Assembly (NCBI GenBank): GCA_038150265.1
Contig: JAYOTF010000009.1
Coordinates: 1 to 57,802 of the forward strand
From: Deltaproteobacteria bacterium
Lineage (GTDB): Bacteria > SAR324 > NAC60-12
Length of the DNA stretch: 57,802 bases
Direction of reading: 5' to 3'
Below the pieces are notes generated by a model. It saw nothing but the letters and a program-made list of their open reading frames with translations. It had not been told where the DNA came from and did not search any database. Positions 30,695 to 50,939 of the stretch are shown one piece after another; the first letter of the stretch is position 1; each line of letters opens with the position of its first letter. The position numbers were made by a program, and so were the translations under genes.

Positions 30695-32947
30695 TCAGAA
30701 GCGGAAGGTCCGGAGGCGAAGGGCATTGAGGACCACAGAGACTGAACTCAGCGCCATGGCGGTTGCCGCAAACATCGGGTGCAGTCCGGGACCGCCAAAT
30801 GGAATGAGCAGGCCCGCCGCAACGGGGATGCCGATGACGTTGTAGGCAAAGGCCCAGAAGAGATTTTGCCGGATGTTCCGGAGGGTCGAGCGGCTCAGGC
30901 GGATGGCACCAGAAACGTGACGGAGGTCGTTTTGAGTGAGGACCACATCAGCCGTCTCCAGTGCGACGTCGGTGCCGGCACCCATGGCGATGCCGACGTT
31001 TGCCTGGGCCAGCGCTGGGGCATCGTTGACGCCATCTCCAATCATGGCCACCTGTCGGCCTTCGCTTTGGTAGTGCTGCGCGATCTGGGGTTTTTCTTCT
31101 GGCAAAACGCCTGCGTGGTAGCGCTCAATCCCGAGTTCTTTTGCGACCGCCTGCACCGCAGAGGAGCGGTCGCCTGTCAGCATCACCACCTCGATTCCCG
31201 ACTGCTGAAGCGTACGCAGGGCCTCGGCGGTTTCTTTCCGGATCTGATCGGCGAGCCAGAGGGTTCCTTGCCACTGCCCCTCACGAGCCAGTTCCAGCGG
31301 AATGGCACCGGGGACGTCTTTCGTGTGGCCGGGCAGGGAAACGCCTTGCGCCTGAAGGTACTCGGCGTGTCCGACCTGCAGGAGGCTGCCTTCGAGCCGA
31401 GCGGAGACCCCCTGGCCTCGGATGGCCTGAAACTCGGTGACGGGTAGCAGCGGGATCTGTTGCTCCTGAGCGGCTGTGATCACAGCGCGTCCCAGCGGGT
31501 GCTCGGAGTTCTGTTCGGCGGCGGTCGCCCACTTCAGCAGGTCCCTGCTTGCCACCCCCGGAGCCGGTGTCACGTCCACCAGCTTCAGGCGTCCCTCGGT
31601 GAGGGTGCCCGTCTTGTCGCAGAGGATCGTGTCAACGGCATGGAGGGCTTCAAGCGCGGGGGCATTCCGGAAGAGGATGCCGTGTCGGGCGCCGACTCCG
31701 GAGGAAACAAGGATGGCGATGGGGGTGGCGAGTCCCAGCGCACATGGGCAGGCAATGACCAGGACTGCGATGGTGTGGATGAGGACCTCGGTTTGTGAAG
31801 CTCCCGCCCACCACCAACCCAGCGCGGTCAGCGCAGCAATCAGGAGCACCACCGGGACAAAAATCGCTGCAACCTGATCGGCCAACCGAGCAATGGGAGC
31901 CTTGCTGAGCTGCGCCTGTTCGACCATCTTGATGATGCGCGCCAGGGTGCTCTGGCTTCCAGCTCGCAGCACCCGGAAGGTGAGGACGCCCTGCTGATTG
32001 ATGGTGCCGCCAGTGACGGGGGCTTCCGGAGCCTTGGACACGGGCAGAGGCTCTCCCGTCAGCATGGACTCGTCGACACGACTTTCCCCTTCCACAACGA
32101 TGCCATCGGCTGGAATGATTTCACCGGGTCGGACCTTGAGGAGGTCTCCGGGGTGAACCTGGTCGATGGCAATGGCAAACTCCTCGCCGTTGTGGACCTG
32201 GGTGGCCAGTTTGGGGCGCAGGCGGAGCAGGGCGCTGATGGCTTCCGAGGCCCGAGCGCGGCTGCGGGTTTCCAGCATCTTTCCGAGGAGGATCAAGGCC
32301 AGAATGACCGCAGCGGTTTCAAAGAAGAAGCGATCTTCTGCCGGCGCGACCAGCAGGTTCCAGGCGCTGAGTCCCACGGCTGCTCCGGAACCGATCATGA
32401 CGAGCGCGTCCATGGTGGGGCTTCGGTGGAGCAGGGACTGCGTGCCACGGATGAAGAAGGAGCGCCCTGCCCAAAGCACCGGAAGGGTCAGCAGCAGCTG
32501 AAGCCCCCCCCACGTCTGAGGGTTGGTGTGCGGAGACAGCACCTCGGGGAAGGGAACTCCGAGCATGGGGAGCATGGCGAGCAAGACGACCGGGAGCGCA
32601 AATCCAAGGGCGAGGATCGTGTTCTGACGGAGGCTTTGGTACTCCTGCTCACCGAGGTCGACGCGGGTGTCATCGGCCTCTTCCTCCACGAGTCGCTCCG
32701 CTTCATAACCCGCGTGCCGGATGGCGTCCACGAGGCCGTTGGGGCCAATTGCCTCCGGAGCATACTGGACCTTGGCCCGCCCAAGCGTCAGGTTGACCTG
32801 GACGTCTTCCACTCCCGGAAGGGCATGGAGGGCTTTCTCCACCGCACTCACACAGCCGACGCAGCGCAGGCCGCCGACGCGGAGTTCGCAGTCCTGATCG
32901 GCACGGGGGGATTCTGAAGAGGGGAGAGGGGATTCGGTTACAAGCAT
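30695..32947 (-). CDS. copA: Cu(I)-translocating P1B-type ATPase
   Basis: HMA CVGC, TGE, CPC, DKTGT, GDGVND, YN, MALSS; start at ATG 32947 fits the upstream promoter. Confidence 0.93.
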
Positions 32948-32989
32948 GGTCAGGTTTATGGGCTTTTCTGAAAAGGTCAACTGGTCCTC

Positions 32990-33018
32990 AGTGTATACCC
33001 CTGTAGGGTATATTTCAA
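32990..33018 (-). promoter_or_regulatory. sigma70 promoter of copA with CsoR-type operator
   Basis: Minus strand TTGAAA-N17-TACACT; inverted repeat TATACCC-N5-GGGTATA at 32994-33012. Confidence 0.8.
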
Positions 33019-33213
33019 GAGCGGTCTGGGGCAGGAACTTCAGGGAAAGGCTTTCAAAAAGAAAGAGGGGGCTCAGAAGGCGGATCCGGAGAGAGGGAAG
33101 GGGGGGAGGCGCTTTGAGTTTTTCCCTTGCAGTAATAGAGCTGTTTATGCTAGCTTTTGCGCTGTTTATCACCTCTTCTTCAGAGGCGAATTGAAACTCA
33201 ACGAGCCGTTCCC

Positions 33214-34119
33214 GTGCCCACCCCGACAAAAGCATATTCGCTAGAAGGCGTTGCACCACAAACGAACAAACTCGCCGACTACTGGGCGCTGACGAAGCCC
33301 CGGCTGCTGGGCATGGTGCTGCTGAGCGCAGCGCTGGGATTTAGCCTGGCTCCCCAGGCAGCAGAGCCGTTGGCGTTGCTGCACATGCTGATCGGAACCG
33401 CCCTGGTGGGGGCAGCAGCGCATGCGTTGAACCAGTGGTACGAGCGCATTCCGGACGGCCGCATGCCGCGAACCCGGAACCGCCCGTTGCCGGCAGGCCG
33501 CCTGAGTTCGGAAGAGGCGCTGCGATTTGGGGTGGGGTTGATGCTGGTGGGGCTGCTGTACCTGAGCCTGACCGTCAACTCGCTGACGGCGATTTTGGGC
33601 GGACTGACTCTTGCTTCTTACGTTTTGCTGTACACGCCCCTCAAGCAGGTGACGGCGCTGAACACCTGGATGGGGGCCATCACGGGGGCATTGCCACCGC
33701 TGATGGGCTGGGCTGCGGCGGCTGGAGAGATGAGTTGGCAGATGCTGCCGATCTTCCTGCTGATGTACTTCTGGCAACTGCCGCACTTCCTTGCGCTGGC
33801 CTGGGCCTTCCGGAAGGACTATGCGATGGGCGGGTTCCGCATGCTCTCCCTCGGAGATGACCAAGGCGTCCGGACGTCTCGTCAGATTGTACTCAATACC
33901 GTGATCCTGATTGCGGCGAGCCTGACCTTCAACTGGGCGGGGCAAGCCGACACGCTGTATCTGGTGAGCGCACTGGTTCTGGGTGGAGCCTTCCTTGCGG
34001 GCTCTCTTTGGTTCTGGCACCAACCGACTGTGGCCAAGGCGCGGACGGTGTTTTTGATTTCCATCATTTACCTGCCTCTGATTGCGATCGCGCTGGTCGT
34101 AGATAACTTCCTCATTTAA
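33214..34119 (+). CDS. ctaB: heme o synthase (protoheme IX farnesyltransferase)
   Basis: [37 protein letters not shown]; start uncertain. Confidence 0.94.
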
Positions 34120-34303: not shown

Positions 34304-35092
34304 ATGCTTGATTACTTTATGCCCCAAGCGTCGACCTTCAGTGGAGACGTGGACAACGTGTTCCTGATGATCGTGTGGGTCGTGGGCTTCTGGTTTGTCC
34401 TGACCCTGGCGACGCTGGCGTACTTCATGATCCGCTACCGGCACCGTGAAGGCGTGAAGGCCTCGTACGTAACGGGTGAGAAGCACTCGGAAAACAAGTG
34501 GATCCATTATCCGCACTACGTCATCATTCTCTGTGACGTCGTGCTGATTGCAGGCTCCATTATGGTCTGGGTGAACGTGAAGCAGACCCTGCCTCCGAAG
34601 GATGACACCATCCGGGTGATTGGTCAGCAGTGGTCGTGGGCCTTCATCCACTCGGGTCCGGACGGTCAGTTGGACACGGAAGATGACATTTCCACCGTGA
34701 ACGACCTGCACGTGGAAGTGAACAAGGTGTATCACTTTGAGCTGCAGTCTCGGGACGTGTTGCACAACTTCTCGGTTCCGGCCTTCCGCCTGAAGCAGGA
34801 CATGATTCCGGGTCGAACGATCACCGGCTGGTTTGAAGCCACCCAGGTGGGCACGTACGATGTTCAGTGTGCTGAAATGTGCGGACACGGACACGGCATC
34901 ATGGGGGGCTCCATCACTGTTCATACCCCAGAAGACTACCAACGCACCATGGAAGCCATCAAGAATGGCACCTATGAGAGTGATTACTTGAAGCGACTCG
35001 AGAATGATCCGATTCCGATCGCTGCCAAGCGTCCCCAAGTGAGCCAGAACACCGTGAATGCGGGTGAGGAAAATCTGGTCAGCAGCAACTAA
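34304..35092 (+). CDS. coxB: cytochrome c oxidase subunit II
   Basis: QWSW, DVLHNF, CuA motif CAEMCGHGHGIM; no fused cytochrome c. Confidence 0.95.
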   Translation: MLDYFMPQASTFSGDVDNVFLMIVWVVGFWFVLTLATLAYFMIRYRHREGVKASYVTGEKHSENKWIHYPHYVIILCDVVLIAGSIMVWVNVKQTLPPKDDTIRVIGQQWSWAFIHSGPDGQLDTEDDISTVNDLHVEVNKVYHFELQSRDVLHNFSVPAFRLKQDMIPGRTITGWFEATQVGTYDVQCAEMCGHGHGIMGGSITVHTPEDYQRTMEAIKNGTYESDYLKRLENDPIPIAAKRPQVSQNTVNAGEENLVSSN

Positions 35093-35129
35093 CGCTTTCC
35101 CTATCATCTGAGATCCAAAAGGAGGATTG

Positions 35130-36848
35130 ATGAGTCAAACCGCAACGGTACAGCATCAGGAGGCCCACGCTCATGATGATCATCATCATGATCAGAGCTT
35201 CCTGAGCAAGTACATCTTCTCGGTGGATCACAAAGTGATCGGCCTGCAGTACATGTTCCTGGGGTTGCTGATGGCAGCCCTGGGGGGCTTCTTTGCCTAC
35301 GCCTTCCGGATGCAGCTCGCCTTTCCGGGAGAAGCCGTCCCTGGTTTCGGAGTCGTGAGCCCGGCAGAATACAACATGATGATCACCAACCACGGGACCA
35401 TCATGATCTTCTGGGTGGCGATGCCGGTTCTGATTGCCGCCTTCGGTAACTACCTGATCCCGCTGATGATCGGTTGTGACGACATGGCCTTCCCGCGGCT
35501 GAATCGCCTGTCGATTCAGGTGTTCTTCGTCAGCATCCTCGTGCTGCTGCTTTCCTACTTCGTGGAAGGGGGGGGATTCGGCGGAGCCTGGACGTCGTAC
35601 CCGCCGCTTTCTTCAGTGGCCGAGTACAGCCTCACCAACTGGGGCTCGTCTCTTTGGCTCCTTGCCGTGACGCTGGAGATCGTCGCCTTCCTGATTGGCG
35701 GAGTGAACTTCCTGACCACGACCATGAACTCCCGGGCACCGGGCATGAAGATGACCGACGTCCCGATCCTCGTGTGGACGATCAACATCGCCGTCATCAT
35801 GTTCATGGGCTCGGTGGGACCGCTGGTGGCCGGTGCCGTGATGCTGTTCATGGATCAGCGCCTGGGCACCACCTTCTTCCTGCCGTCGGCCGGGGGTGAC
35901 CCCGTCCTGTGGCAGCACCTGTTCTGGTTCTTCGGACACCCGGAAGTGTACGTCGTGCTCTTCCCGGCCATGGGCGTGGTGGCTGAGATCATCACCACCT
36001 TTGCCCGCAAGAAGCTGTTCGGCTACCGCGCGATCCTCTACACGATCATTGCAACCGGAGCCCTCTCCTTCATCGTCTGGGCGCACCACCAGTTCATCGC
36101 GGGCATTGACCCCCGGATGGCAAACATCTTCACCGTGACCACGGTTCTCATTTCGGTCCCCATTGCGGAGATGCTGTTCTGCTACATTGCGACCCTCTAC
36201 GGAGGATCCATCCGTTATGAGCTGCCGATGCTCTGGGCTGTGGCCTTCCTGGTGACCTTCCTGGTTGGAGGGGTAACGGGCATTCCGCTGGGTTCGAGTG
36301 GAACCGACCTGTTCTTCCACGATACCTACTTCGTGATTGCCCACTTCCACTACACCTTCTTCCCGATTGCGATCATTGCAATGTTCGCAGCGCTCTACTT
36401 CTGGTACCCAAAGATGTTTGGGCGCCACATGAACAAGACGCTGGGACTGATCCACTTCTGGGGAACCGTGATCTTCTTCAACGGGCTCTTCATGCCGCTC
36501 TTCCTCCTGGGAATGGCGGGCCAGCACCGACGGATCTACAACTACCAGCACTTCCCTGACCTGGCCTCTGCCGACCTTCAGGGCATCCGGATCTTCGCGA
36601 CGACGAGTCTGGTGCTGCTGCTGCTCTTCCAGATTCCGTTTGTCTGGAACTTCTTCTCCAGCATGTTTACTGGAGAGAAGGCCGAGGCGAACCCCTGGAA
36701 GGCCAACACGCTGGAATGGGCGGCGCCGTCGCCTCCTCCGCACGGGAACTTCAAGGAACTCCCGGTGGTTTACCGTGGACCGTACGAGTACAGCGTCCCC
36801 GGAAACCGTGAAGACTTCTGGCCCCAACACATGCCGGATCGCAACTGA
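35130..36848 (+). CDS. coxA: cytochrome c oxidase subunit I (A1-type GHPEVY)
   Basis: NHGTIM, WFFGHPEVY, WAHH, HDT, HFHY, RR. Confidence 0.96.
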   Translation: MSQTATVQHQEAHAHDDHHHDQSFLSKYIFSVDHKVIGLQYMFLGLLMAALGGFFAYAFRMQLAFPGEAVPGFGVVSPAEYNMMITNHGTIMIFWVAMPVLIAAFGNYLIPLMIGCDDMAFPRLNRLSIQVFFVSILVLLLSYFVEGGGFGGAWTSYPPLSSVAEYSLTNWGSSLWLLAVTLEIVAFLIGGVNFLTTTMNSRAPGMKMTDVPILVWTINIAVIMFMGSVGPLVAGAVMLFMDQRLGTTFFLPSAGGDPVLWQHLFWFFGHPEVYVVLFPAMGVVAEIITTFARKKLFGYRAILYTIIATGALSFIVWAHHQFIAGIDPRMANIFTVTTVLISVPIAEMLFCYIATLYGGSIRYELPMLWAVAFLVTFLVGGVTGIPLGSSGTDLFFHDTYFVIAHFHYTFFPIAIIAMFAALYFWYPKMFGRHMNKTLGLIHFWGTVIFFNGLFMPLFLLGMAGQHRRIYNYQHFPDLASADLQGIRIFATTSLVLLLLFQIPFVWNFFSSMFTGEKAEANPWKANTLEWAAPSPPPHGNFKELPVVYRGPYEYSVPGNREDFWPQHMPDRN

Positions 36849-37921: not shown

Positions 37922-38538
37922 ACCTTTCCCTCTTAGTCGGGCTTGTTGTGGAGCCGTCCCGTGACGGGGCTGCTCCCGCTCGCCAGGCTCCCCTGGTGCC
38001 CAGCTCCGTGTTCGCCGTCCTGGCGTTCATTGTGACGGAGCTGATGCTCTTTGCCTCCCTGATCAGCGCCTACATCATCATCCGCTCCGGCATTGACGAG
38101 TGGCCTCCCTGGGGACAGCCTCGTCTGCCGGTTTGGAGTACCGCCTTCAACTCGCTGGTGCTGCTGGGGAGTGGGGTGCTGATGTTTCTGGCAGGACGGC
38201 ACCTGAAGACCGACCGCAGTCAGGTCTACCGCCTGATGGGCATGAGCATTGCGGCGGGTGTGTTCTTTCTGGTTTTTCAGGGATTTGAGTGGGCGCAGCT
38301 GCTGGCCTACGGCTTGACCGTGACCTCGAGCAATTACGGGGGCATGTTCTACCTGATCATTGGCATGCATGGCCTGCACGTCCTCACCGCTGTGATGGCG
38401 ATGGTCTATACCTGGATGCGCCTGGCGCCCAATGCCAAGAAACCCCTGACCGATGACGGTTTCCGGGCCATGGAAGTCTTCTGGTACTTCGTGGTGGGAA
38501 TCTGGCCGGTCCTTTATGTGCTGGTGTACCTCGCATGA
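37918..38538 (+). CDS. cytochrome c oxidase subunit III family protein (copy 2)
   Basis: TELMLFASL, WPP, GMHGLHV, FWYFVVGIW. Confidence 0.88.
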   Translation: MNLSLLVGLVVEPSRDGAAPARQAPLVPSSVFAVLAFIVTELMLFASLISAYIIIRSGIDEWPPWGQPRLPVWSTAFNSLVLLGSGVLMFLAGRHLKTDRSQVYRLMGMSIAAGVFFLVFQGFEWAQLLAYGLTVTSSNYGGMFYLIIGMHGLHVLTAVMAMVYTWMRLAPNAKKPLTDDGFRAMEVFWYFVVGIWPVLYVLVYLA

Positions 38539-38747
38539 CCAAAGCCACACTTTTTCTGCTGACCGCGCTGGCGGTTCTCCTTCCTCAGTCCGTTTGGGCC
38601 TGTGCCGTCTGCTTTTCGGGGGCAGGAGGATCGCTGAACGCGTACTACATTGCCACCGCGCTGATGATGTTCATCCCGATCTTCTTGATTGGTGGATTCG
38701 TCTACTGGCTGGTGCGGAAGTCCCGTCAGGCAGGCTCCGAGCTCTGA
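38535..38747 (+). CDS. small membrane protein with CxxC (ACAVCF)
   Basis: Signal-like N-terminus, CAVC, TM; ATGA-coupled to the upstream gene. Confidence 0.75.
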   Translation: MTKATLFLLTALAVLLPQSVWACAVCFSGAGGSLNAYYIATALMMFIPIFLIGGFVYWLVRKSRQAGSEL

Positions 38748-47525: not shown

Positions 47526-50500
47526 TCAGCCGCTGATGTGGAGGCTGTGCCGGAGCAATTCCTCAAAATCCGAGTGCTGCAGGCGGTCGAGGTCCTGCGG
47601 ATCGATGTAAAAGGTATTCATCACCTGGTGTCCGGTGGTGGTGATGAGCGACTGCCGAACCGGAACATTCACGGTTTCAAAGGCGTGGGCCATCTTGAAG
47701 TACACCATCGGTGCATCTTCCACTGTCACCTTGACGCGAAGGTAGCTCGCCGGGCGCCGCAGGAAGCGTCCGGACGGAGCCGCCTGCTCCGGACCCTGCT
47801 CTTCAACGAGGTAGCCCTTCTCGTCATCATCAAGGTACTCCACCTGAACCCGGCTGTTGTACATGAATTCGTGGGTGGGCAGGCGCAGCGGTGGTGGTGA
47901 ATCTCGGAGGATGGACGATTCAATGTCCCGTGGGAAGATCATTTCGCCACTGGCGCGCCGGGAGACCTCGAAGAAGTAGCAGTAGGCCGCGCTTCCGTCA
48001 TGAAAGCGGACCCGGTTCATCTTGGCCGAGTCGACGTTCAGGTTGAACTTGTTGATGGCATAAGCGGCACGGCTGTGCGGGGAGTCCTCGAGGCGGATGT
48101 AGACGAGCAAGCCGGTGATCCGGCCTCGTGCGTTGGTGAGCACGTTGGCCAACACGGGGCGGTCAATGTGCTGAAAAATGGACAGGTTCTGGGCCAGCAC
48201 ATCCGGAGGCGCACTGAGCAGGAAGCGGTTGGGGAACGCGGTGAAGAACCAGTTGATCATCGTGTTGAACGACTCCGTCAGCGTCATGATGGAGCTGTTG
48301 CTCAGCGTCTGACGGATCATCCGGATCATCCGCTCCGTGTGTTCATCAATGCCCTTGGCATCAAGTGACCCCACCTTCAGCGCCCGCCACATTCGCTGCA
48401 GCTCAGCCTCGGAGTTCCGGATGCGTTCGCGTTCCTTGGGGTGCGTGCGTTCCAGAGGCTCAAACAGCTCCTGCTCCAGGTCGTTCCGGAGGCTCCGTTT
48501 GATGAGCAGGTCGATGCGGGTATCAAACTCCAGGTCGCTCTTCTTGTTGTCGAGGTACGAGTGAATGAAATCGAGCGACTCCTCAAGGGTTCCGGAGGTC
48601 CGCATTTCGGAAAAGACCCGGTAGGTTTCCTCAAAGAAGTTCCGGAGGTGCCGGGTGTCGCGGGCATTGGCGTCACTGACAGCGCTGTAGTCAGAGACGT
48701 TGACCAGGAAGAGCAGAATGACGTTGACGAGGTTCCGGTCGGCAATCTCAAAGAAGTTCTGGAGCGCCTGGTCAAAGTACGCGGAGGTCTTGCTGAGCTG
48801 CACCACGGTCATGTGGTGGGCAATCAGCAGCGACACCAACCGAAACAGCTCCGGGTCCTGATAGCCGATGCGTTCCAGCGCATGAACGGCCATGAGGGTT
48901 CCGGAAATCTGGTGCCGGGTGGTTGGGTCGATCTTTCCCACATCATGAAACAGCATCCCCCACTTGAGGGCGAGGAGGTGCTGTGGCTTGAGGTAGTGGT
49001 ACAACTCCGGGTAGTTCTGCTTGAGCAGCTTCAGCTCCTCCTGGCTCCGCTCCACGGCATTGAGGGAGTGGATGCAGACGGGGTGCTGATGGTACGAGAG
49101 GTTCCGGAGCAGGAAGCGCATCTGGTTGCACTCCGGGATGTACCGGCCGATGAGGGTGTCGGGCAGGTTGGAGCTGCTGATCGGGTCACTGATCTCGAAC
49201 ATCACCCGCAACGCGTTGGCCGTGTGCCGGGTCAGCATCAATTCCGTAAACTTGGCGGGTAGCTCCTGGGCATGGGCCTGGATGCGTTCCGGAGTCAGGG
49301 TCGGAATCAGCTCTGCCAGCTCATCCTTGAGCTCCACAGAAAGGTCGTATCCGGACTGCCCAATGTAGATGAACAGCTCCAGCAGCACGAGGGGGGTGCT
49401 GAAGATGAGTGCGAGCGGCACCTGAGGCAGCCCCTCCAGCGCATGAATTTCAACAATCCGGCGCTTGCGCAGGTGCACCACCAGCTGGAAATCCGAGAAG
49501 GTCCGGACAACGGTCCGGTCCATCAGCTTCCGGAGCATCATCCGGGAGAGGGAGCGGATGTTGTCCACCATCTGCAGGCGGTAGCGGTCAAACTCGTCGA
49601 CATTCTGAAACCGCTGACGCTTGAGCAGGTAGAGGCGCTCGAGGCTGTCGTTGACCACATTGAATTCGAGGTTCCGGTCCACACACCCGCTGGCGCGTGC
49701 CTCTTCATCATAATAGGCCTGCGCCGCGCCGCTGAAGTTCCGGAGGTCGTAGAAGAACTCAAGGGCCTGGCACAGCTTGTACCCCTGCCGAGGCGAGAGG
49801 ATGCGCTTCTGGATCAGCAAAGCCAGCAGGTCGGCCGTCTGGCTCGGAAACACGCCATAGGTGGCCGCAGCAATCCAGAGCGGAATCTGCAGGGTCCGGA
49901 GCCCACCAAAGTCTTCCTTGATGTCCATCTCGTTGAGGTCGGGCTGGTGACTCTTCTGGTACTCGTCGAGCTTGTTGAGCACATAGGGCTCGTACGGAAG
50001 GATGTGGAAGAACCGGCGCTTGAGGGCCTCTGCGAGGGTGTTGCTGCCAAGCAGGACCCGGCTTTCCAGAATGGACGGAATGGTGTGAACGCTGTTGGGC
50101 TCGCTGAAGCGGGAGAGGTCCTCGTCAATCTCGAAGTACTGGTGGGCGGTTTCGATGCCGGACTCGCGCAGGAGGTACTCCATCCGCATGATGAGCTGCT
50201 TGCAGGTCTCAATCTCTCCTGCATTGAGCGATTGCGTGTCCACGCAGTAGCCGAGGTCCCGGTCGGAGGCAAAGCTGAGTTCGGCGCGTCCGTATCCTCC
50301 ACGGGCAAAGATGACCATGTGTCCGAGCAGAAACTCCTGATTCAGGCTGCACTGTTCCAGCTGCGGCAGGGCTTCCTGCAACTCCTGCAGCCGGACCTGC
50401 AGCTGCTCGACCTCCCGGAGGTGATCGTCGTGGATGCGCTGGTAGTACTTGAGCATCTGCCGGGCATCCTGGGCCTGCGAGTGCCGGTGGGTTTCGAGCT

Positions 50501-50939
50501 CCTGCTTGAGGATCCCGCACTTCTCTTGCTTCTCCGGCAGGATGCGGCGTTTGTAGTCCTGCTCCTTCCGGAGCTGCTCCACAAGGTTTTCCCGAATGGC
50601 CGGAAGGTCTTCCAGGCTGTACTCAAAGGCGATGCTGAGAATGGCATCAAGCAGGTGGGTGTTCCGCGCCAGGATCTGGAAGGAGTTCTGGACCGTCAGG
50701 TTGGCCTGAACGGCCGCCTGGTACTCGTGCTGGTAGTACGCGGCAACGGTCTGGGCAAACGCACGCTCGCGCAACTCGAGGTGCTCAAGCGCCGAGACGG
50801 AGGCTTCTTGAATCTGAGCCTGCTGGAGCAACTCACGGAGGCTGTCTTGGTGACGGTTGCGGGCGTCTTCATCTTGAAGGAGGCGGAACTCCGACAGAAA
50901 GGGATAGTTTTCTGCAGAAATCAGGAGCGGGCTGTTCAT
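47526..50939 (-). CDS. GlnD-like [protein-PII] uridylyltransferase (NTase + HD + degenerate ACT), enlarged
   Basis: ARGGYGRAELSFASDRDL, DIKEDFGGLR, HPVCIHS, LFHDVGK. Confidence 0.82.
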   Translation of the reverse strand: MNSPLLISAENYPFLSEFRLLQDEDARNRHQDSLRELLQQAQIQEASVSALEHLELRERAFAQTVAAYYQHEYQAAVQANLTVQNSFQILARNTHLLDAILSIAFEYSLEDLPAIRENLVEQLRKEQDYKRRILPEKQEKCGILKQELETHRHSQAQDARQMLKYYQRIHDDHLREVEQLQVRLQELQEALPQLEQCSLNQEFLLGHMVIFARGGYGRAELSFASDRDLGYCVDTQSLNAGEIETCKQLIMRMEYLLRESGIETAHQYFEIDEDLSRFSEPNSVHTIPSILESRVLLGSNTLAEALKRRFFHILPYEPYVLNKLDEYQKSHQPDLNEMDIKEDFGGLRTLQIPLWIAAATYGVFPSQTADLLALLIQKRILSPRQGYKLCQALEFFYDLRNFSGAAQAYYDEEARASGCVDRNLEFNVVNDSLERLYLLKRQRFQNVDEFDRYRLQMVDNIRSLSRMMLRKLMDRTVVRTFSDFQLVVHLRKRRIVEIHALEGLPQVPLALIFSTPLVLLELFIYIGQSGYDLSVELKDELAELIPTLTPERIQAHAQELPAKFTELMLTRHTANALRVMFEISDPISSSNLPDTLIGRYIPECNQMRFLLRNLSYHQHPVCIHSLNAVERSQEELKLLKQNYPELYHYLKPQHLLALKWGMLFHDVGKIDPTTRHQISGTLMAVHALERIGYQDPELFRLVSLLIAHHMTVVQLSKTSAYFDQALQNFFEIADRNLVNVILLFLVNVSDYSAVSDANARDTRHLRNFFEETYRVFSEMRTSGTLEESLDFIHSYLDNKKSDLEFDTRIDLLIKRSLRNDLEQELFEPLERTHPKERERIRNSEAELQRMWRALKVGSLDAKGIDEHTERMIRMIRQTLSNSSIMTLTESFNTMINWFFTAFPNRFLLSAPPDVLAQNLSIFQHIDRPVLANVLTNARGRITGLLVYIRLEDSPHSRAAYAINKFNLNVDSAKMNRVRFHDGSAAYCYFFEVSRRASGEMIFPRDIESSILRDSPPPLRLPTHEFMYNSRVQVEYLDDDEKGYLVEEQGPEQAAPSGRFLRRPASYLRVKVTVEDAPMVYFKMAHAFETVNVPVRQSLITTTGHQVMNTFYIDPQDLDRLQHSDFEELLRHSLHISG

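Follow-up and report, generated by a model that had tools for sequence, protein, structure and literature searches.

The ba3 oxidase of T. thermophilus, a B-family member of the heme-copper oxidases, is an oxygen reductase whose K-type proton path has no lysine. The A family is still described as having two conserved proton channels and the B and C families as having one (available text of PMC11214002), and mutation of the K-path is reported to cripple model enzymes (available text of PMC7196763). A-family COX1 proteins without the eponymous lysine, in the following termed Lys-less, were catalogued by Degli Esposti in 2021 as the classes 'KC-channel', 'hybrid' and 'modified' (PMC8239418, Suppl. 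Table 3), with examples from bacterium HR19 (Calescamantes), Elusimicrobia, Methylacidiphilum, Halobacteriovorax and acidophilic iron oxidisers. As stated in the accessible part of the same paper, the glutamate of subunit II is frequently lost in these oxidases. Here, we describe a Lys-less A-family oxidase encoded on a contig of 57,802 nucleotides (JAYOTF010000009.1, assembly GCA_038150265.1; the window) from a bacterium of the SAR324 lineage.

Judging from the sequences and from a predicted complex of subunits I and II, it is proposed with a probability of roughly 0.5 that subunit I belongs to a working aa3-type, CuA-dependent A1 oxidase, in which the K-type proton path would have been relocated to the interface between helix VIII and the second transmembrane helix (TM2) of subunit II.

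Comparison of subunit I with described oxidases

As determined by phmmer against all PDB chains, subunit I shows the same fold and family as the canonical A1 aa3 oxidases (1M56/2GSM, 1AR1/1QLE and mitochondrial COX1; E 1e-118 to 1e-125), while the similarity to ba3 is only distant (E 4e-12). The Lys-free K-type path is shared with ba3, whereas the D-channel and E286, both kept here, are missing from the B family. R. sphaeroides 1M56_A (E 2.2e-118) served as reference, and columns such as 197 or 361 are numbered accordingly. For subunit I itself, numbering begins with the TTG at 35127 (573 aa). The ATG at 35130 (572 aa), directly behind AAGGAGG, appears to be the likelier start, in which case 1 has to be subtracted.

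The alignment with 1M56_A is gap-free across helices IV, VI and VIII and sets isvpiaemlf over AVPTGIKIF. In helix VIII, T359, G360, I361, K362 and S365 are replaced by I346, A347, E348, M349 and C352; in helix VI, S299 and H300 by A286 and E287; and in helix IV, S197, S200 and S201 by E184, A187 and F188. None of the canonical Lys/Thr/Ser positions of the K-channel keeps its residue (M349, I346, A286, C352), and with a Met at K362 in a gap-free alignment the lysine is not restored by proper alignment. The preliminary description of this DNA, made by counting from conserved motifs, had read SVPIAEM over AVPTGIK (T359 to I, K362 to M, Glu at 361), Ala at S299 and a new Glu in the SGASS region. 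The HMMER alignment agrees with these readings, the coordinates are exact, and the new Glu is E184 (S197). Compared to canonical aa3, the enzyme additionally has Phe at 201, Thr at 319 and 323, a Gln after the HH pair (Q322, near the CuB ligands), a His before the Arg pair (H467) and a longer TM2 in subunit II with His71 and Asp78. E287 is no novelty, as Glu/Asp at the position of H300 is the common A-family state in our own loci and in Suppl. Table 3 (PMC8239418).

With M, A and I at the columns of P. denitrificans K354, S291 and T351, the protein falls among the Lys-less classes of Degli Esposti, with which it shares the missing eponymous Lys and, in many members of its clade, the loss of the entry Glu of subunit II. 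Unlike the rows of Suppl. Table 3 (PMC8239418), it reads Y, A, M, I, V/C and E at the first six columns, and no member of the clade is listed there; the table tracks neither 197 and 361 nor a His/Asp in mid-TM2 of subunit II. Hence, the suspicion of the preliminary description that the enzyme may belong to a catalogued subtype holds for the Lys-less class as a whole, whereas the combination of an acid at 197, Glu at 361 and His/Asp in TM2 is absent from this table. A literature search for a description of the clade, its biochemistry or a replacement of the Lys by subunit II returned only the papers of Degli Esposti, with the 2020 BBA review and the preprint supplements outside the search, and no biochemical characterisation of the clade was found in it.

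All residues that the preliminary description had reported as intact were found in the alignment. These are the D-channel residues N121 (N108), D132 (D119), N139 (N126) and N207 (N194), E286 (E273) and the cross-link Tyr Y288 (Y275) within FGHPEVY, the six His ligands H102, H284, H333, H334, H419 and H421 (H89, H271, H320, H321, H406 and H408) and the Arg pair R481/R482 (R468/R469). Together with a CuA subunit II and subunits III and IV, which are likewise shared with canonical aa3, this places the enzyme in type A1. A large A-family group (P0197, P0220, P0221, P0224, P0237 and others) was observed to carry Gln for the K-channel Lys and Glu for N207.

The general remodelling of the channels, which also affects neighbours of the Arg pair (H467) and of the CuB ligands (Q322), could be taken to indicate another job, such as nitric oxide (NO) reduction, Na+ translocation or non-pumping O2 scavenging. 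We consider this very improbable, since the enzyme retains the cross-link Tyr, the three CuB His, the CuA site and E273 and is the only A-family oxidase classified in its genome and in the family relatives, and since no denitrification genes were seen within the window. An assignment as NO reductase was rejected based on the Tyr, the three CuB His and the CuA site: described NO reductases lack the cross-link Tyr (available text of PMC11214002), and neither this loss, nor altered CuB/FeB ligands, nor the missing CuA of cNOR and qNOR is found in subunits I and II. A quinol oxidase is ruled out by the complete CuA site.

Conservation, selection and oxidase content of the genome

In a word-indexed homologue search, 7998 of the 8000 scored candidates showed E <= 1e-50, and the best 120 were 69-100% identical to subunit I. 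Conservation was counted in 119 homologues (>=69% identity, the window's own protein excluded), for which a mean column identity of 0.74 was determined. A Lys at the position of M349 was found in none of them (M in 103, I in 8, L in 5, V in 2 and T in 1), while E348 was present in 118/119 and both E184 and F188 in 119/119. Helix VI showed A286 in 114 and Glu or Asp at 287 in all 119 sequences. The same holds true for S343, Q322, T410, Q131 and D118 (119/119 each), with H467 in 116/119. The six His ligands were kept in 118-119 of the 119, and the GHPEV motif with Glu and Tyr in every sequence. Since the pattern is fixed across a large clade, it lies far beyond chance.

Compared to two genomes of the same genus, dN/dS values (Nei-Gojobori) of 0.010 and 0.074 were determined for cox1 and of 0.048 and 0.108 for cox2. 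The gene of subunit I is under strong purifying selection. Decay had been named in the preliminary description as a possible reason for the substitutions, to be recognised by dN/dS and by a lack of conservation in orthologs; the values of 0.01-0.07 for cox1 and the signature kept in 119 homologues refute a pseudogene. The probability of a decaying or inactive paralogue is negligible: nothing speaks for it except that, according to textbooks, K362M should inactivate model oxidases, and the conserved cassette and the status as sole classified A-family copy argue against it in addition to the selection data.

The assembly is 97.8% complete, and among the matches classified the Lys-less enzyme is its only A-family oxidase. 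A heme A synthase (CtaA) is encoded in the same genome. The only other heme-copper oxidase observed is a cbb3 on C22:1232-2740, where CcoN (502 aa) is followed by CcoO and a two-component regulator adjoins the locus. This cbb3 is a separate locus and only 19% identical to subunit I, which is itself not a C-family protein. Within the bacterial family of the window, a COX1 match was obtained in 11 of 12 relatives. In 10 of the 12, the A-family matches that were classified, in a survey of matches above 234 bits, all belonged to the Lys-less type, and the remaining strong matches were cbb3-like. Relatives at the order level carry canonical TGVKN enzymes.

Based on the conserved, coordinated substitutions, the purifying selection, the status as only classified A-family oxidase and the presence of heme A synthase, subunit I is almost certainly part of a working oxidase. 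A working enzyme had been one half of the inference in the preliminary description and is supported by conservation, dN/dS and CtaA. For the other half, a different ion or a different physiological role, no pointer was obtained.

The conserved residues also include a hydroxyl ladder in helix VII, with T306 in 118/119, T310 in 115/119 and S314 in 117/119 homologues. In an alignment of 214 loci and representatives, 141 sequences carried the K-channel Lys, 72 lacked it and 1 was gapped at this column. At the columns of T306 and T310, the 141 Lys-containing sequences showed A in 117 and S in 22, and I in 140 and L in 1, respectively, so that T310 replaces a near-invariant Ile. The four columns of the cbb3 KC path, which we take by cbb3 numbering to correspond to G299, I303, T306 and S314, read G-I-T-S. 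This reading was likened to the KC-channel rows of Suppl. Table 3 (PMC8239418), a likeness that holds as far as the assumed numbering does. Protons could pass within subunit I from E287 along T306, T310 and S314 to the cross-linked Tyr, a route of the kind for which Degli Esposti and co-workers defined the KC-channel class of some A-family COX1 proteins. Such a cbb3-like path appears quite unlikely as the replacement of the K-channel, as T310 is missing in older Lys-less branches and in L098 and L099. Moreover, it would be compatible with a route at the subunit interface and does not exclude it.

Subunit II and its predicted interface with helix VIII

Subunit II comprises a complete CuA site (H154, C189, E191, C193, H197 and M200) and, in TM2, the motif E63-N-K-W66 followed by H71 and D78. 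P70, H71 and D78 were found in 16/16 subunit II sequences of the clade, while H71 and D78 were found in 0/43 Lys-containing outgroups. Compared to the outgroups, TM2 of the clade is longer by 4 residues (81-84). The canonical entry Glu (E63) was kept in only 3 of the 16 clade sequences including the query, compared to 43/43 outgroups; at the family level it was present in 9/9 sequences (8 relatives and the query). Accordingly, the ENKW motif and the His and Asp of TM2 noted in the preliminary description are confirmed, whereas the kept ExxW is not a feature of the clade.

Subunits I and II were folded together with family alignments in three runs and with three controls, and the results were evaluated as lists of interface residues, without distances. 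The interaction prediction score from aligned errors (ipSAE) was 0.89 in the three runs and 0.00 for the best control, with a contact agreement of >=91% and a predicted local distance difference test (pLDDT) of the partner of >=80. The predicted interface comprises residues 340-341, 343-344, 347-348, 350-352 and 354-355 of helix VIII, with 346 and 349 absent, and residues 63-64, 66-67, 70-71, 74-75, 78, 81-82, 84-86 and 88-90 of TM2. Both lists show a periodicity of 3-4 residues, and in an antiparallel register E348 lies at the height of H71, S343 at that of 74/75 and 340/341 at that of D78. This matching periodicity of the touching faces indicates that E348 is directed towards the His and Asp of subunit II and not towards the old channel. 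Of the new Glu residues, for which the preliminary description had suggested a structural check as channel lining, E348 is specific for the clade and faces TM2 of subunit II in the prediction, but does not point into the former channel.

For 33 Lys-less pairs of subunits I and II, E348 and H71 occurred together in 26, neither was present in 6, H71 alone was found in 1 (L017), and E348 without H71 in 0. Among the six pairs with neither residue, L022, L098, L101 and L111 bear a second acid at position 82 of subunit II, while L025 and L109 do not. In these four older branches TM2 was observed to hold two acids, D78 and D/E82, which on sequence grounds appears to be another way of solving the same problem.

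Distribution and evolutionary history

Among GTDB species representatives, at least 600 matching stretches were obtained, of which 80 loci were kept and COX1 was recovered from 78. The signature was present in 19 of these (L003-L021, 64-71% identical), originating from Myxococcota, Bradymonadia, Polyangiales, Archangiaceae, Gemmatimonadota/Longimicrobiales, Bdellovibrionaceae, a Puniceicoccaceae isolate and Eisenbacteria. Four more loci were without Lys (L022, L023, L025 and L079) and 55 with Lys. L016 (CAMASI010000044.1) is titled as a metagenome-assembled genome of Klebsiella pneumoniae, yet carries a cassette of the Myxococcota/Gemmatimonadota type, which presumably goes back to an error in binning or labelling. 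One homologue with 72% identity is labelled SAR324. Altogether, the widespread clade spans Myxococcota, Bradymonadia, Gemmatimonadota, Bdellovibrionota and the Puniceicoccaceae isolate, as well as SAR324 by the label of this one homologue; in a clustering at 50% it is covered by a single representative.

In a FastTree tree of the 214 sequences, the Lys-less sequences occupy at least 7 places. This agrees with the statement in the available text of PMC8239418 that the Lys was 'lost seven times', a count taken from the archaeal COX1 tree of that paper. In a second tree of 53 sequences (IQ-TREE, LG+G4, -fast, SH-aLRT), the gene falls into a monophyletic, nested Lys-less series (SH-aLRT 100), whose sister group consists of Lys-containing enzymes from Binatia, Poribacteria, Gemmatimonadota and Acidobacteriota. 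The series starts with the loss of the Lys, accompanied by S299A in most of the earliest branch (P0143 keeps the Ser). It is followed by the acid at 197 (88.5), A200/F201 (99.3), T306 (97.3) and finally, in the crown, E348 together with T310 (80.2; SH-aLRT in each case). The Calescibacterium locus L025 branches within the same series.

Outside this series, L109 (G014:C302) has lost the Lys independently inside the Lys-containing sister group. This applies to both subunits, which are 56% (subunit I) and 44% (subunit II) identical to their tree neighbours, compared to 44% and 30% to the enzyme described here. L109 likewise lacks the entry Glu, has a lengthened TM2 and carries a Glu at the column of D78. 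Its genome additionally holds a canonical Lys-containing enzyme (L096). A further lineage comprises haloarchaeal-looking COX1-COX3 fusions (~820-950 aa) from brine and marine metagenome contigs (L118-L197), for which the first 40 of 76 loci were considered. Like the enzyme described here, they combine Lys to Met with an adjacent new carboxylate in helix VIII (F-D-L-M). They differ in that the acid lies at 360 instead of 361, that TM2 of subunit II contains no acid and that they form a separate lineage in the tree. Two independent Lys-less lineages also carry a carboxylate where helix VIII and TM2 meet. As a generalisation, which we put forward tentatively and at slightly less than even odds, the K-path would have been replaced by a new kind of proton and charge relay, made of carboxylates with or without a His (in this series E348, S343, H71 and D78), on the helix VIII/TM2 interface outside the pore of subunit I, and this would have happened at least three times (this series, L109 and the haloarchaea).

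Acids at 197, 360 and 361 were found in 0/141 sequences with Lys each, compared to 26, 5 and 19 of the 72 sequences without Lys. The acid at 197 appears early after the loss of the Lys and was gained again in P0272 and P0285. This distribution would fit an oxidase without any K-type path, in which all eight protons per O2 pass through the D-channel, with Glu184 beside Glu273 as buffer or branch point and a structural role of the interface His, Asp and Glu. The invariance of the D-channel residues as well as of E184 and F188, and the hydrophobic character of all four canonical K-path positions, point in the same direction, and a bioRxiv preprint of Degli Esposti and co-workers proposes, in its available text, that the Lys-less oxidases of iron oxidisers keep the D-channel alone. 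However, such an enzyme would give no account of the interface carboxylates in three separate Lys-less lineages, nor of the buried charged residues H71 and D78 being invariant in the clade members examined, and an acid at 197 is missing from the oldest Lys-less branch. We regard a supply of all protons by the D-channel, with E184 as the key adaptation, as unlikely; together with the cbb3-like path it is a main rival of the interface track.

Proposed proton path

According to the proposed relocation of the K-type path to the subunit interface, the lineage has lost the lysine pathway of helix VIII, while the retained D-channel (D119, N108, N126, N194 and E273) is expected to carry the pumped protons and those of the oxidative phase. 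With E184, the D-channel has gained a second buried carboxylate. The substrate protons for the reduction of the active site would most likely enter via a polar track of E348 and S343 in helix VIII and H71 and D78 in TM2. Turnover, conduction by this track and retained pumping are all inferred, and the interface track, a D-channel-only supply and a cbb3-like path are not mutually exclusive.

Several observations weigh against a relocated path. The high score of the complex reflects likeness to solved oxidases, since subunits I and II are a textbook pair, and the contact between E348 and H71 is deduced from the helix register of the model. The co-occurrence of both residues corresponds to one joint gain and one later loss (L017) and is suggestive only, not a matter of statistics. 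The earlier Lys-less branches L022, L025, L098, L101 and L111 carry neither E348 nor H71, so that neither residue is a prerequisite for living without the Lys. In addition, the earliest branch (P0143 type), considered here by its subunit I, lacks the acid at 197, and the proposed route is traced only within the interface, up to D78 and short of the active-site Tyr.

If the interface relay is true, A-type catalysis would not need the Lys, and subunit II would take a direct part in proton delivery, with possible consequences for the H+/e- stoichiometry or for regulation by the membrane potential. The lineage represents a natural experiment on the role of the K-path. With E348, H71(II), D78(II) and E184, the clade names residues that can be tested along a stepwise evolutionary series, and it bears on estimates of energy yield for abundant environmental aerobes.

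Gene cassette and neighbouring genes

The coordinates of the oxidase genes, the key residues and further genes of the window are summarized in Table 1.

Table 1. Features of the oxidase locus and other genes of the window (R. sphaeroides residues in brackets)
Feature	Position	Strand	Remarks
Dynamin-family GTPase, 694 aa	7740-9821	+	
NusG-like paralogue, 195 aa	29899-30486	-	just downstream of the Cu-ATPase gene, same strand
Copper-type P1B ATPase	30695-33259	-	E1-E2 ATPase and HMA domain; divergent, upstream of ctaB/oxidase cluster
ctaB/cyoE heme O synthase (UbiA family)	33157..34119	+	PF01040, E 7.6e-54; first gene of + strand cluster
Subunit II, 262 aa	34304..35092	+	PF00116; complete CuA site, without cytochrome c domain
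Subunit II TM2, codon of E63	34490-34492	+	
Subunit II TM2, codon of H71	34514-34516	+	
Subunit II TM2, codon of D78	34535-34537	+	
Subunit I, A1-type (GHPEVY)	35127..36848	+	PF00115, E 8.6e-128; 1M56_A alignment
Helix IV, top of D-channel: E184 (S197), A187 (S200), F188 (S201)	35676..35690	+	codon of E184: 35676-35678
Helix VI: A286 (S299), E287 (H300)	35982..35987	+	
Helix VII hydroxyl ladder: T306 (A319), T310 (I323), S314 (G327)	36042..36068	+	
Helix VIII segment S343...I346-A347-E348-M349	36153..36173	+	M349 at canonical Lys position; PIAEM: 36159-36173; I346-M349: 36162-36173
Short subunit III, COX3-like, 193 aa	36915..37496	+	PF00510, E 1.3e-16
Prokaryotic subunit IV (COX4_pro), 138 aa	37505..37921	+	PF03626, E 1.5e-9
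Second COX3-like subunit, 206 aa	37918..38538	+	PF00510, E 3.7e-18
70-aa membrane ORF, CxxC motif	38535..38747	+	no Pfam match; last cassette gene
1137-aa protein	47526-50939	-	sole match weak, GlnD-type

The gene order cox2-cox1-cox3-cox4-cox3' was kept in 17/17 complete loci of the clade. Two COX3-like genes around COX4 are also listed for the COX operon subtype a-III in the available text of Suppl. Table 1 (PMC8239418), where this subtype is given with a canonical K-channel, whereas the cassette described here is Lys-less. The 70-aa open reading frame (ORF) at its end comprises a signal-like N-terminus, the CxxC motif and one transmembrane helix; a homologue was found by tblastn directly 3' of cox3b in 12 of these 17 loci as well as in L022. 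A gene for a dihaem cytochrome c (~215 aa) lies directly upstream of cox2 in 5 of 7 loci of relatives with scanned flanks. The window's own genome holds a homologue of this cytochrome (46% identity) elsewhere.

Short contigs of 150-470 nt with a depth of 2-4, nearly identical (0-7 differences) to the region from ctaB to the 70-aa ORF, were found in four salt-marsh metatranscriptome runs. They are a weak hint of expression, as a carry-over of DNA is possible. An apparent joint from 36089 to 36324 in two metatranscriptome runs has a side of only 22 nt and lies between two universally conserved motifs; it was read as chimeric contigs from other organisms and rejected. The P1B ATPase encoded beside ctaB may supply copper to the oxidase.

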